Assembly: GCA_044356295.1 (NCBI GenBank)
Contig: JBIKWN010000005.1
Span: 7,176 to 71,175 of the forward strand
Length of the DNA: 64,000 bases
Direction of reading: 5' to 3'
DNA from: Bdellovibrionota bacterium
GTDB lineage: Bacteria > Bdellovibrionota_C > UBA2361 > JBIKWN01
Each line of letters starts with the position of its first letter. Position 1 is the stretch's first letter. A program made the position numbers and the translations under genes. Shown piece by piece: positions 46,553 through 56,013 of this stretch. The notes below the pieces were generated by a model, which was given only the letters and a program-made list of their open reading frames with translations, searched no databases and had not been told where the DNA came from.

Positions 46553-46629
46553 GGAGCCGTAGTTCAGTTGGTTAGAACGTCCGCCTGTCACGCGGAAGGT
46601 CGCGGGTTCGAGTCCCGTCGGCTCCGCCA
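46553..46629 (+). tRNA. tRNA-Asp (anticodon GTC)
   Basis: 77 nt: GGAGCCG acceptor stem, AGTTGGTTAGAAC D-arm, anticodon loop CTGTCAC (GTC), T-arm GGTTCGAGTCC, and a 3' end reading CGGCTCCgcca. Confidence 0.95.
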
Positions 46630-46692
46630 TTCGACATCGCCGCCATTAGCGGCTTGCTCATGGCAAGTCATTCTTCGGCGAGGAGAATGGCG

Positions 46693-46713
46693 CCCTGAGC
46701 CCTGAGCCCTGAG
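46693..46713. repeat. Tandem heptamer (CCCTGAG)x3 inside a GC-rich 110-nt patch immediately 3' of tRNA-Asp
   Basis: cgccctgagccctgagccctgagcg, followed by aagggagtcgaagggaggg (AAGGGAG x2). The local GC is far above the window average. Confidence 0.8.
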
Positions 46714-46863
46714 CGACCAAAGGGAGTCGAAGGGAGGGCTGGTTTCATGCTGTCAGCCATTTTGAATCAGCTCAGTATTATTTGTCTCCCGATACCAGAC
46801 ACAATCAAAACATATATTTGTTTACTATACTGAATTGTATTAGCCTATTTTAAGGCAGTCTCA

Positions 46864-47802
46864 GTGATAAAAGTAGTTGATAATAGTTGCGATCTTTCGG
46901 ATTTGTATGGTCCCGACATTGGTTTTGCATGTGCACATCCTGAAATGACAGGCCTTGTCCCATATCCTAGTAAAACTTCTGAAACATCTGAAAACCAACC
47001 TGGAATTCTTTTCGAACCAAAGATTGAAGTACGTCGCTGTTTAATGATAGGCGATTCATTTAACAGAATTGCTTCAGAACCTGGATGTATCGATAGATAT
47101 CTGCATCACCGGTTTCAGATTGAGGGAACAGACTTTGATCAATTAGCGTTAGCCCTTGCCGGTGATCATCAAAGATCTCCATTCAATAATAAGAATCTCG
47201 CTGAAATTATTTCGCCCTTATCTCAAATTTCTGCAGAGGGTCAGGGTTGGATAAAAAATCAAGCAGGGTTTCGAAATGCAGTAGGAAGATCTTACTGTGT
47301 TAAACAATTGAGTAAAGTATGTGGGGATTTAGATTCAGAAATTCAAGAATATTGTAATGCACTATCTACAGTTGCAAATGAAAATGATTTTTTAATGATT
47401 CTTATTGATGGATCAAGACTTTCAAATCAATCGCAAGCAGTAAATCCTCGGCCAATCAGAAACTATCAACAGTTGTTAGCAAATTTAAATGCAATTCCAG
47501 GATGGAAGTGTATTTTCGATCTGTCCCTAGAGTGTGGCAATTTAGCAAATGCTCACATGGAAGATATTGCAAAAAAATCAATCGAGATGGACCGCACTGC
47601 AGTGCTAACGAGTGTTGCCTATCAACAAGAGCCAACATCAATGCATACACAAACTATATGGGACTACCTTGTGAATACAATTTTATTTGGAAGGAGCCTA
47701 AAAGAGATTCGTTTAGCTCCATTAATTAGTGAAAATGCAGCCTCACCCAAAGCAGTGCCACTTATTCCACAGATACGTTCGAATTACTCTGTCGCGTTGT
47801 GA
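46864..47802 (+). CDS. Hypothetical protein (possible GDSx-type hydrolase)
   Basis: 312-aa ORF. The only motif-like feature is LMIGDSFNRIA (GDS-x block) near residue 60. The stop codon runs directly into a copy of the 22-bp motif. Confidence 0.4.
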   Translation: MIKVVDNSCDLSDLYGPDIGFACAHPEMTGLVPYPSKTSETSENQPGILFEPKIEVRRCLMIGDSFNRIASEPGCIDRYLHHRFQIEGTDFDQLALALAGDHQRSPFNNKNLAEIISPLSQISAEGQGWIKNQAGFRNAVGRSYCVKQLSKVCGDLDSEIQEYCNALSTVANENDFLMILIDGSRLSNQSQAVNPRPIRNYQQLLANLNAIPGWKCIFDLSLECGNLANAHMEDIAKKSIEMDRTAVLTSVAYQQEPTSMHTQTIWDYLVNTILFGRSLKEIRLAPLISENAASPKAVPLIPQIRSNYSVAL

Positions 47803-47897
47803 TAGGGGATGCTCACCTTTATTAATGCATTGAATTTGTTCAAATTTAATTTTAATTGTGCTTAAATTTAAAAATATATATATATATAATCATATAT

Positions 47898-53685: not shown

Positions 53686-53713
53686 GGGGGACGCTCAGAT
53701 TTTATAACTTTTA

Positions 53714-53800
53714 TTTTTTTTTGTAACGCGAAGGACACGAAGTACGCGAAGGAATTAATTTAATCCTTCGCGTACTTCGCGACCTTCACGTTACAAAAAA
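53714..53800. repeat. About 85-bp palindromic repeat element, copy 3
   Basis: TTTTTTTTT-gtaacgcgaaggacacgaagtacgcgaaggaattaa-ttt-aatccttcgcgtacttcgcgaccttcacgttac-AAAAAA, followed by tatcttcaattatttc as in copy 2. Confidence 0.9.
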
Positions 53801-53840
53801 TATCTTCAATTATTTCTAGCATCAATCAGCCAAATATGTT

Positions 53841-55862
53841 TTACCCGGTAAAAGTATAAACAATTTCAAGTGACATCGGATCTAAAAGAGCCCTCATCCA
53901 ATCGGGTTGTTTCTCAATCTGCATATTTAAATAATCGATAGATTCTTTCTTGGCCGGTAGTCCTTTGCGCAATCTATATCTCTGTTCCGCGGCTAACGGC
54001 TTATTACCATCAACCAGTACATTTGACAGAGTTCTTCGAAACTGTGAAACCATGTCACTAGTACACCATGCTTGACCATGTGGTAAAAATATTGAGGCTG
54101 CTGCTGGTTCGAAGCAAGCTTCGGATAATAAAATTTTTAGTTGAGATATTTCAAAAAGATTTAAATGAGATTCCCCCAGTATTGGACCATGTAAGACTCC
54201 TGATTTATGAAATAGATCGTATGTTAGTATTTCGAAAATCTTTTTAATTTTTCTTGGATCTATATTGCTGGATTCATCTGTGTTACGTTGCATAGCAATT
54301 CCTAAAGCTATCACCAGTAATCTACGATGAGCAGAAAGTGTTATCTCACTGTCTTGAATAAGGCGTTTATACCAACTGGTATTATGAAAGAAACACGAGG
54401 GGTCTAGTTTTTCGATAACATTTGAAGATAGATCGCCTAATTGTACATACTTTTCAATCAGCTTGCGTGCATGTCGAAACCCTAAATCTCCTTTACTACG
54501 ATTTACAATTTGATCTGCGGCAAATGGTGAAACGTCAAATAAACTTTGTGCATATTGTAAAGGAGTAGGTGGGTTATCCTTATACTCGACAGCAGACATT
54601 ATAGTTAGTGTACTTACCCGTTGGCCAAGTTCAAGATTTGAATCTGAAGCAATATCTGGTGGAAGAAAACATAGTAAGCTTTCTGAAATATTTTGACTAA
54701 CGACACCAAGTTTAGATATACAAAATTGTGTTGATTGTAGTTTGCCTTGAACAGATATATGGCTTGAGCCAAGCAAGATACTTTCGGCGTGCTTAATAGT
54801 TTTCAAACCAAAAAGTCGAAGTATAATCTCAGTATCTTTGAATCCACAAAATTCCTGGATTTCTTTTCTGAAAAGCGCGCATGCACTTCTTCTTGCCCGA
54901 GAAAGAGCCAGGCGTTTAGGATCTAAATATAATTTCTCACTAGGATTTGGATTAAGTAATACGACCATTTTGTGAGCAAATGGATGAAATGCTACTTGGT
55001 TTAAATACCTTTCGAGACGGCTGGGGCTTAAGCTTTTGTGACCATAGATTATATCTCGTGCTGAACCAAATGTTAATTCAAAGCGAAGTGCAACTTCTCG
55101 AATTGCTGAGGCAAGCTTTGGGGCATTATTACCATTAAAATGTCTATAAACTTCGAATGCAAATTCTTTCCTTAGCTCAACAATATCAGAAGGTAATTGC
55201 GAGGTAGAGTATTTTTTTGGTGATGATGGTTTGGTAGGAAAGGTTTGAGGAATGCTTTGTGAGAAAATTTTAGCAAAGGTGTATCGAGCTTCCTTATCGC
55301 TACTCTCCAGCAGTTGAAGCGATAAATTAGTTTCAAACAGATCAATTACCTCTTCACTTGAACGACTGTTACTTATACGACGACGAACTCTTGAAAGACG
55401 TGATTTATATTGAGTTAGATTTATATTTAAATGAAATGCTCCTTCTTCATCCGAAAAACCAATAATATCTAGAAAAAGAACATTTTGATCGAGCGGGTTA
55501 TGTATCCCAAGTGAGGCTAAAGTTTCACGTACAAGAGCATAATGTTCTCTGTTAAAATCAAAATTAGAAGTAGATGCATGTTTGGAACTAATTGGTTCGA
55601 TTGAATCCGGAGCATCCAACTCGATTGCATGTCGTGTTCTTTTTCTCTTTTCCCCCCTATGTTTATCAATCCCAATACTTTGGAAAGTACGAATCACTAA
55701 ACCAGTTGCTGAGCCACCATCTTTAACTTCATGCCCATTGAGCTTAAGCCACGCTTCACCTAAAGCATCCTCAGCATCTCGTAAGGGTACACCCGCCCTT
55801 ATTAAAGATTGGATACGCTTATTTCCTGAACGGAGTAACTCTTCGGCGATATCTTCTTGCAT
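53841..55862 (-). CDS. Large hypothetical protein (673 aa) with a weak sigma-70 region-2-like N-terminus
   Basis: Long ORF. The N-terminal LIRAGVPLRDAEDALGEAWLKL loosely resembles the ECF-sigma region 2 pattern (AEDLxQExFLK). The remainder is unrecognised. Confidence 0.4.
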   Translation of the reverse strand: MQEDIAEELLRSGNKRIQSLIRAGVPLRDAEDALGEAWLKLNGHEVKDGGSATGLVIRTFQSIGIDKHRGEKRKRTRHAIELDAPDSIEPISSKHASTSNFDFNREHYALVRETLASLGIHNPLDQNVLFLDIIGFSDEEGAFHLNINLTQYKSRLSRVRRRISNSRSSEEVIDLFETNLSLQLLESSDKEARYTFAKIFSQSIPQTFPTKPSSPKKYSTSQLPSDIVELRKEFAFEVYRHFNGNNAPKLASAIREVALRFELTFGSARDIIYGHKSLSPSRLERYLNQVAFHPFAHKMVVLLNPNPSEKLYLDPKRLALSRARRSACALFRKEIQEFCGFKDTEIILRLFGLKTIKHAESILLGSSHISVQGKLQSTQFCISKLGVVSQNISESLLCFLPPDIASDSNLELGQRVSTLTIMSAVEYKDNPPTPLQYAQSLFDVSPFAADQIVNRSKGDLGFRHARKLIEKYVQLGDLSSNVIEKLDPSCFFHNTSWYKRLIQDSEITLSAHRRLLVIALGIAMQRNTDESSNIDPRKIKKIFEILTYDLFHKSGVLHGPILGESHLNLFEISQLKILLSEACFEPAAASIFLPHGQAWCTSDMVSQFRRTLSNVLVDGNKPLAAEQRYRLRKGLPAKKESIDYLNMQIEKQPDWMRALLDPMSLEIVYTFTG

Positions 55863-56013
55863 TCAAAAAACTAAGTAAAAATACGTTAATTGATAGAGAG
55901 ATTTATATCAGAAGAATTATCCTTAACATAAAAAAAGAGAAAAAAATTGATTTATCACCAATTATCTTTGCGCTTTTGCTTGAGTAAGACTCAATGTACT
56001 CTATCTAGAAATC

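Follow-up and report, generated by a model that had tools for sequence, protein, structure and literature searches.

A segment beside tRNA-Asp in an uncultured Bdellovibrionota bacterium as a possible old, non-mobile mosaic variable region

We analyzed a 64,000-nt stretch of contig JBIKWN010000005.1 from a Bdellovibrionota bacterium (referred to as the window) with respect to a segment of 9.4 kb between a tRNA-Asp gene and livH, for which an accessory island anchored at the tRNA had been proposed. The interpretation that we favor, with a confidence balanced about evenly between acceptance and doubt, is an old and currently non-mobile mosaic variable region (a genomic islet) rather than a discrete integrative island. 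Genes of three kinds would have come together in it. Two genes would stem from the horizontal gene pool, one for a PDC-S01-type ATPase/PD-(D/E)XK nuclease and one for a BrnA-like ribbon-helix-helix protein that stands alone. A 312-aa ORFan and a 673-aa protein resembling extracytoplasmic function (ECF) sigma factors would be lineage-restricted. A flagellin with the sigma-28-type promoter of its family and an adenylosuccinate synthetase (PurA) homologue outside its usual gene block would be native-type genes in a non-ancestral place. Assembly and reshuffling would have proceeded by local recombination and duplication and not by a site-specific integrase.

Boundaries, composition and population context

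The segment starts at position 46630, directly after the tRNA gene and hence in the place of a tRNA 3'-end insertion. From the tRNA to livH the order of genes is 312-aa open reading frame (ORF), BrnA-like gene, 60-aa ORF, ATPase gene (minus strand), PurA-like gene, flagellin gene and 673-aa gene (minus strand). The upstream flank contains GreA, methyltransferases, AroB, AroD, Snf2 and a CitE-like lyase as identified by Pfam; the downstream flank continues from 56014 with livH, livM, an ABC ATPase and leuS. The outline given by the original prediction agrees with these results: tRNA-Asp(GTC) followed by a GC-rich patch with (CCCTGAG)x3, housekeeping genes (aroB, aroD, Snf2, CitE-like) upstream and livHMG/leuS resuming at about 56 kb. 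The same holds for its orphan 312-aa ORF, its BrnA-antitoxin-like protein without a toxin partner, its DUF4143 AAA ATPase, its GC-rich divergent PurA homologue and its FG-GAP flagellin. For the coordinates of all features see Table 1.

Table 1. Features of the tRNA-Asp to livH segment and of its repeat families (window positions)
Feature	Positions	Strand	Evidence and remarks
Palindrome copy 1	44973..45057	.	Between convergent Snf2 and CitE-like genes, outside the proposed island
tRNA-Asp(GTC), CCA encoded	46553..46629	+	ARAGORN; Rfam tRNA 73.9 bits; left boundary of segment
Non-coding patch, 131 nt, 59.5% GC	46630..46760	+	Directly 3' of tRNA-Asp
312-aa ORFan	46864..47802	+	GC1/2/3 0.50/0.40/0.26, host-typical
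Motif copy 1	47803..47822	+	Starts at the base after the 312-aa ORF stop; 76 nt upstream of BrnA-like start
BrnA-antitoxin-domain protein, 121 aa	47898..48263	+	PF14384 E 1.4e-10; phrog_4692; extra C-terminal 60 residues
60-aa ORF	48462..48644	+	No NCBIfam/PADLOC/PHROG match; stop codon is first triplet of motif copy 2
Motif copy 2, degenerate	48642..48661	+	Between converging 3' ends of 60-aa ORF and ATPase gene
AAA_14 + DUF4143 ATPase-nuclease, 387 aa	48661..49824	-	Pfam; PADLOC PDC-S01 models
Divergent adenylosuccinate synthetase homologue, 448 aa	49903..51249	+	PF00709 (Adenylsucc_synt) E 1e-65
Motif copy 3	51398..51417	+	Sequence and nhmmer
111-nt repeat A	51454..51564	.	Contains palindrome copy 2 (51466-51549); fold -56.6 kcal/mol, z -13
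Three tandem motif copies, 17-nt period	51578..51623	+	Repeat search, nhmmer; include copies 4 and 5
91-nt hairpin	51606..51696	.	Ends are motif copies 5 and 6; fold z -5.3
Sigma-28-type promoter-like site	51708..51734	+	TAACTTTT-N11-GTCGATCT; ~95 nt upstream of flagellin ATG
Flagellin with central FG-GAP repeat (beta-propeller-type) insert, 618 aa	51829..53685	+	Pfam Flagellin_N/FG-GAP_3 x7/Flagellin_C
Motif copy 7	53687..53702	+	1 nt after flagellin stop codon
111-nt repeat B	53705..53815	.	Contains palindrome copy 3 (53717-53800); fold -51.2 kcal/mol, z -14; flanked by the flagellin and 673-aa genes, which converge on it
673-aa protein	53841..55862	-	ECF-sigma-like N-terminus; right end of segment, divergent from livH

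The nearest relative in a scan of genome contigs with the CitE-like protein was a metagenome-assembled genome of a Bdellovibrionota from Lake Mendota (JBILLA010000092.1, referred to as L002). Its DNA similarity to the window ends at 46626, the discriminator base of the tRNA. After this base the tRNA gene of the window encodes CCA, whereas L002 continues with TAT. The GC-rich patch that follows in the window carries the (CCCTGAG)x3 repeat at 46693–46713 and ends with a terminator-like hairpin (46737–46758). It belongs to no Rfam family, its fold is not significant (z -1.55), and its repeat does not occur in the viral contigs searched. The patch could be either a co-transcribed 3' trailer RNA of the tRNA or a remnant of foreign DNA.

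In 500-nt windows the GC content ranges from 31.8 to 45.4% inside the segment and from 32 to 42% in the flanks, with a value of 49.8% only at the tRNA and the GC-rich patch. The GC content at third codon positions (GC3) lies between 0.22 and 0.29 for six genes of the segment, the same as in the rest of the window (~0.27). The PurA-like gene is the sole gene-level outlier with a GC3 of 0.391 and a GC content of 44.7%. The 312-aa, BrnA-like, ATPase, flagellin and 673-aa genes resemble the host in their GC contents at the three codon positions (GC1/2/3) as well as in synonymous-codon likelihood; both "orphans" (312 aa and 673 aa) are therefore of host-typical codon composition. Swings from about 30% to 50–60% GC had been described for the segment. 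The PurA-like outlier was reproduced in the sliding-window and codon analysis, but the size of the swings had been overstated, and apart from this gene and the 131-nt patch the composition does not deviate (six of the seven genes are host-like). The host codon composition of all genes but PurA suggests a long residence at this locus. In 3-kb windows the strongest tetranucleotide deviation is found at 50–53 kb and is of moderate size (z 2.9), compared with z 2.0 for the Snf2 gene outside the segment. The segment has a coding density of 83.6%, lower than the 93.8% and 95.9% of the two flanks.

Every ORF of 50 aa or more between 46.6 and 56 kb is accounted for, with no recombinase match in Pfam, NCBIfam or PHROG and no integrase-sized ORF left unassigned. 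Neither an excisionase nor an att repeat nor a transfer gene was found in the segment. A second copy of the tRNA 3' end is absent from the window at up to 3 mismatches, and a blastn-short search (word size 7) with the tRNA 3' end over 46.7–64 kb gave only chance matches of at most 11 nt. The lack of an integrase and of a duplicated tRNA 3' end, which had been noted before, is thereby confirmed over 46.7–64 kb of the window. An origin from a phage or phage satellite was considered and rejected: the repeats and the GC-patch repeat were not found in viral contigs, and PHROG matches in the segment are limited to the BrnA-like domain.

In L002 the first 230 nt contain an 18-nt direct repeat of the tRNA-Asp 3' end plus 5 nt (45–62 and 148–165) and an inverted copy of a T-arm fragment (105–122 versus 156–173), at most 150 nt after the tRNA. 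The contig ends 150 bp after tRNA-Asp in a G/C homopolymer. Judged from its sequence, the duplicated 3' end resembles the att-type scar that an integrative element would leave, and together with the inverted T-arm fragment it suggests that tRNA-Asp is an insertion target in this clade.

Exact-protein look-ups with livH, CitE and flagellin retrieved same-species contigs from four samples (3300059473, 3300042289, SRR11638223 and SRR27422106), which are 100% identical to the window. In a strain with a 91%-identical version of the 141-aa gene next to the tRNA (GCA_041447075.1), a gene follows beyond the tRNA at the same spacing as in the window.

Genes of the segment

The 387-aa ATPase matches PDC-S01, a single-gene candidate defence system of PADLOC, over its full length, with models PDLC04790 (E 4.2e-57) and PDLC04789 (E 1.8e-48). 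Homologues occur in 329 plasmid records, the best one being Simkania pSn with 45.7% identity. The PDC-S01 match together with the wide distribution on plasmids would place the protein in the mobile gene pool. DUF4143 is listed in the PD-(D/E)XK superfamily of nucleases (PMC3424549). PDC-S01 is described as common, with reported cross-domain transfers and without experimental validation (PMC12988326). As often seen for defence genes, the gene is located near a gene of the toxin-antitoxin type. In contrast to defence islands, however, it is one unvalidated candidate only, with no other recognized defence systems around it.

The BrnA_antitoxin domain (PF14384) of the 121-aa protein was identified with 41.8 bits at a cut-off of 26.1, and the form starting at 47898 is an exact match to a database protein. 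The domain is shared with BrnT/BrnA type II toxin-antitoxin systems. Unlike these, the protein has the additional C-terminal part and no neighboring BrnT (DUF497) gene was found: the 312-aa ORF has no Pfam match, and the 60-aa ORF, which was outside the Pfam scan, has none in the other three collections (smaller ORFs were listed without scanning). Between 48201 and 48644 the BrnA-like and 60-aa ORFs share one reading frame, which also has three stops close to one another, and the frame of the 60-aa ORF is open for a further 120 nt upstream of its ATG. This region may represent a decayed longer gene.

The 312-aa ORF matches no entry in Pfam, NCBIfam, PHROG or PADLOC, and among 5.8 billion proteins it has no homologue besides itself. 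It is a genuine ORFan with the GC1/2/3 pattern of a real, resident gene. Its AlphaFold model was unusable with a predicted local distance difference test score (pLDDT) of 34.

The 673-aa protein had also been called an orphan, which is not strictly correct. A word-index search returned the protein itself only and Pfam gave no match at E<=0.01, but an exhaustive phmmer search of 1.8 billion representatives yielded three relatives (35% identity over the full length, 23%, and 71% for a C-terminal fragment). The protein comprises an ECF-sigma-like part (residues ~1–170) and a helical extension of ~500 aa. For the N-terminus, an NCBIfam ECF sigma model was matched with E 3e-4, far below its cut-off, and JGI names the protein "sigma24 family". 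The top 25 Foldseek hits were almost all ECF sigma factors, at a sub-threshold E of ~0.08 and for a weak model (pLDDT 57), and one relative (P0125) carries Sigma70_r4_2 on record. On the basis of these matches the N-terminus is ECF-sigma-like, and the family to which the protein belongs is very rare. Members of ~670 aa are found in three genomes (the window; L169, 1679–3688; L170, 4343–6370) in three unrelated contexts, and one of them adjoins a HigB/HTH toxin-antitoxin pair. A link between this family and FG-GAP proteins was rejected, since the FG-GAP protein near the L169 member shows similarity at the level of the repeats only and L170 has none. The 127-aa fragment that is 71% identical to the C-terminus lies on another contig of the same sample.

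The PurA homologue scores below every NCBIfam cut-off for PurA (NF002223, 197 versus 402 bits; TIGR00184, 172 versus 395 bits). In an alignment with the PurA chains 3hid_A and 6bs7_A (second-ranked) from the PDB, the motifs GDEGKG, FEGAQG, TRxGxGPFPTE and RxGWxD (RTGWxD) as well as the aligned histidine of GGHNAGH are kept, and the protein looks catalytically intact. Its nearest relatives are annotated PurA proteins of Bdellovibrionota with 50–55% identity. Three loci of other Bdellovibrionota share a conserved block of four genes, absent in the window, in which a divergent PurA comes last; it consists of a ~400-aa unknown protein, a Ser/Thr protein kinase, a ~475-aa unknown protein and PurA (L082, 6037–11314; L083, 2111–7418; L084, 6028–11335). 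The gene thus looks like a native PurA of the Bdellovibrionota type that has been displaced from its usual block. The loci fetched from these distant genomes contained no further genes in common with the window against which the divergence of PurA could be gauged.

The flagellin has canonical Flagellin_N and Flagellin_C ends, a large replaced center and a sigma-28-type promoter, as do other flagellins with a large central insert. It differs from them in that the insert consists of seven FG-GAP/VCBS-type repeats, which presumably form a beta-propeller. No description of a flagellin with a central domain of FG-GAP repeats was found in the literature searched. The sigma-28 consensus is TAAAGTTT-N11-GCCGATAA, and the site upstream of the flagellin gene is a good fit. 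A conserved version of this promoter-like site and of the leader precedes a flagellin of 619 aa in L002 (L002 3409–5268), in which seven FG-GAP/VCBS-type repeats likewise take the place of the central domain. Overall the two flagellins are 41% identical (65% in the N-terminal, 34% in the middle and 42% in the C-terminal part), versus 81% for the CitE-like protein and 82% for Snf2; the 141-aa neighbor of the tRNA is 56% identical. This low identity compared to the neighboring genes suggests that the flagellins may be either fast-evolving orthologues or paralogues. The gene order in L002 is Snf2, an AIR-synthase-related gene, small ORFs, flagellin, TMEM43, CitE, the 141-aa gene and tRNA-Asp. The flagellin gene is therefore located on the other side of the tRNA, between Snf2 and CitE, where the window has only palindrome copy 1. 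With the predicted promoter typical of its family, the flagellin of the window looks native but displaced.

Repeat families

Two repeat families are confined to 44.9–53.8 kb, the remaining 55 kb of the window being free of them. The first comprises three palindromes of ~85 bp, represented by GTAACGCGAAGGNCNCGAAGTACGCGAAGGA, with an arm complementarity of 88–100% (zero expected by chance). Each arm is built up from three 9-nt CGCGAAGNN units with flanking T and A runs. Copy 1 has a 37-bp stem free of mismatches, an 11-nt loop and tails of T6/A8; its predicted RNA fold reaches -69.6 kcal/mol (z -18). Repeats A and B, which contain the other two copies, are 97% identical and bracket the flagellin unit in direct orientation. 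Two substitutions in the arms, absent from copy 1, are common to copies 2 and 3, as are ~25 nt of flanking sequence. These shared features, in the form of 111-nt direct repeats, point to a local duplication or recombination event. Three 85-bp palindromes had been reported among the island genes; all three are present, but copy 1 lies beyond the tRNA. Since all of them are located at gene 3' ends, two of the three between convergent genes, they are likely to be strong bidirectional terminators, as predicted from their structure.

The second family is a 20-nt motif with the consensus (T)AGGGGACGCTCACCTTTAT (motif sequence GGGGACGCTCACCTTTAT). A search with its 16-nt core found 6 copies versus 0.18 expected by chance. 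Using nhmmer, seven copies were detected, all between 47.8 and 53.7 kb, with no credible match in the rest of the window; the earlier count of at least six is hence well supported and far beyond chance. The motif abuts or overlaps the stop codons of three plus-strand ORFs (312-aa, 60-aa and flagellin), starting at the following base, overlapping the stop, or starting 1 nt after it, respectively. Two copies form the perfect 20-nt inverted ends of the 91-nt hairpin upstream of the flagellin promoter-like site. Inspection of the flanks of this element and of the repeats revealed no target-site duplication. Neither family corresponds to an Rfam family (miRNA-type matches were generic hairpins below threshold), and neither was found in L002 or in the viral contigs searched. 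Candidate interpretations of the motif are a miniature inverted-repeat remnant, a protein-binding site or a recombination site.

Both families resemble repetitive extragenic palindromic (REP) and miniature inverted-repeat elements (REP/BIME, Correia, ERIC) in the near-identical 85–111-nt hairpins with T/A tails at gene 3' ends and in the 91-nt element with its perfect inverted ends. They differ from these by the clustering of all copies in the window within 9 kb and by the lack of target-site duplications and of a cognate transposase. Two other assignments were rejected. The start of the motif, GGGGACGCTCA, resembles on inspection the Tn3 terminus, GGGG...ACGCTCAG, but the inner TAAG is absent, only 20 nt match and there is no 5-bp duplication. 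An integron attC site, or a cluster of such sites lacking an integrase (CALIN), does not fit either: the palindrome ends TTGTAAC...GTTACAA have two mismatches per core site (RYYYAAC/GTTRRRY), copy 1 is a perfect hairpin without bulges, the genes are on both strands and there is no IntI.

Short-read contigs from SRR11638223 (L001, L165 and L168) end inside the palindromes (45031, 53740, 53758) as well as at position 46626, where the tRNA ends. The contig ends at palindromes indicate that the repeats fragment assemblies of this genome, and such breaks are expected for any repeat longer than the assembler k-mer.

Possible origins of the segment

Like tRNA-associated genomic islands, the segment lies at a tRNA 3' end, contains a defence candidate, a solo antitoxin-like gene and an ORFan, and has a lower coding density with a patch of odd composition at the tRNA junction. 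Unlike them, it lacks an integrase, other mobility genes and a direct repeat of the tRNA end, is mostly of host composition and includes flagellin and PurA genes of native type, and no presence/absence polymorphism was seen in the same-species contigs. The accessory island of the original prediction is accordingly supported in part. Its start at the tRNA end, its mobile-pool genes, the ORFan and the rare family, the displaced PurA, the drop in coding density, the two repeat families unique within the window and the att-like duplication at tRNA-Asp in L002 speak for it, whereas the lack of integrase and att sites, the host-like composition of six of seven genes, the livH junction kept in four samples and the native-looking flagellin and PurA speak against it.

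Several points also weigh against our interpretation as an old mosaic variable region. The contig of the only close relative, L002, ends 150 bp after the tRNA, and variability is inferred rather than observed. All same-species contigs that reach the junction keep the 673-aa gene next to livH, with no presence/absence variation seen; host-like composition and fixation in the population would be just as compatible with a plain core region. That the palindromes act as terminators is predicted from structure only, and a simple terminator scan, limited to loops of 3–8 nt and at most 20 stem pairs, did not list them. A repeat-mediated rearrangement relies on one comparison, namely with L002, which lacks both repeat families and whose flagellin is only 41% identical and possibly a paralogue.

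An ordinary stretch of core chromosome, in which the genes are inherited vertically, the "orphans" reflect poor sampling of the clade and the tRNA is a coincidental neighbor, is in our view a rather unlikely explanation. It agrees with the composition of six of the seven genes, with the constant arrangement in same-species contigs from four samples as far as these contigs reach, with a PurA of Bdellovibrionota type that looks intact, with the family's promoter in front of the flagellin, with the presence of Pfam-less ORFs outside the segment (33102–35684 and 39954–40400) and with an organism so rare in databases that its 90%-identity clusters are tiny. It does not account for genes of typical accessory kind (PDC-S01, the solo antitoxin-like gene), for a PurA gene that is a GC3 outlier outside its conserved block, for a sigma-like family that is not syntenic in any two genomes, for the 59.5% GC patch, low coding density and repeats unique within 64 kb, or for the att-like scar at the same tRNA in L002. 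The segment could also be a classical genomic island that a tyrosine integrase inserted in one piece at the tRNA-Asp 3' end, after which the integrase and the distal att repeat were deleted and the composition drifted towards that of the host. The start at the tRNA 3' end, the end of L002 similarity at 46626 with CCA in the window versus TAT in L002, the foreign-looking GC-rich patch adjoining the tRNA, the accessory-type content and, in L002, the 18-nt duplicate of the tRNA 3' end with the inverted T-arm fragment are consistent with such an event. We nevertheless consider it improbable: integrase, excisionase and transfer genes are all lacking, as is an att repeat, the content is mixed and includes a clade-type PurA and a flagellin with its native promoter, unlikely cargo for a single element, one member of the palindrome family (copy 1) is found beyond the tRNA, and the repeat families and the GC patch are absent from the viral contigs searched.

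A further proposal, which we regard as highly doubtful, is that the palindromic repeats of 111 nt, perhaps along with the 20-nt motif, serve as recombination sites that move gene units. The flagellin unit would have been excised from between Snf2 and CitE, leaving palindrome copy 1 behind, and its re-insertion at another copy would have created the flanking direct repeats; this course of events appears just as doubtful. In line with it, the FG-GAP flagellin of L002 is found exactly where the window has only copy 1, the flagellin unit of the window lies between 97%-identical direct repeats sharing two substitutions absent from copy 1, the motif is within 1 nt of, or overlaps, the stops of three plus-strand ORFs, and its copies are arranged in tandem (17-nt period) and inverted, as for protein-binding sites. 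L002, however, has neither repeat family, and its AIR-synthase-related and TMEM43 genes are absent in the window; its flagellin may be a paralogue, given 41% identity versus 81% for the neighbors. In addition, the segment has no recombinase gene, features of integron attC sites (bulged bases, core sites) are missing from the palindromes, and no alternative junctions were seen, contig breaks being expected for repeats. That the 111-nt repeats and the motif are sites of an undescribed, integrase-independent cassette shuffling which relocated the flagellin across the tRNA is very improbable indeed. In that case the flagellin unit would be poised for deletion, inversion or amplification, resulting in variation of a surface filament protein, and repeat-mediated relocation of the flagellin would be the sole part of wider interest. 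If the segment is instead an old mosaic variable region, it would be one more tRNA-adjacent variable islet, showing the state after loss of mobility and with equilibrated composition. The practical value is small: a PDC-S01 candidate, a rare ECF-sigma-like family and a flagellin with FG-GAP insert are flagged in relatives of predatory bacteria, together with two local repeat families that break metagenome assemblies.

The lineage of the window is an uncultured Bdellovibrionota population, and its proteins recur on contigs of 21 and 97 kb from JGI metagenome 3300059473. The 90%-identity clusters of window proteins have 1–3 members each, which indicates that the lineage is very thinly sampled in databases. 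The ORFs of 860 aa (33102–35684) and 148 aa (39954–40400) outside the segment have no Pfam match at E<=0.001; family-less genes are thus not restricted to the proposed island. A scan of metagenome contigs with the CitE-like protein gave nothing closer than 56% identity among the matches listed (Rhodocyclaceae, Armatimonadota), and a further contig (L003, CitE 55% identical) shows no synteny with the window on the CitE side that it covers. For the CitE-like lyase itself (45062–46009) the nearest relatives beyond the immediate lineage, among the matches listed, are from Armatimonadota (56%) and Rhodocyclaceae (~45%). This gene has a different neighborhood in each of the Bdellovibrionota contigs seen. 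The flank upstream of tRNA-Asp, including this "housekeeping" gene, may itself have been acquired.

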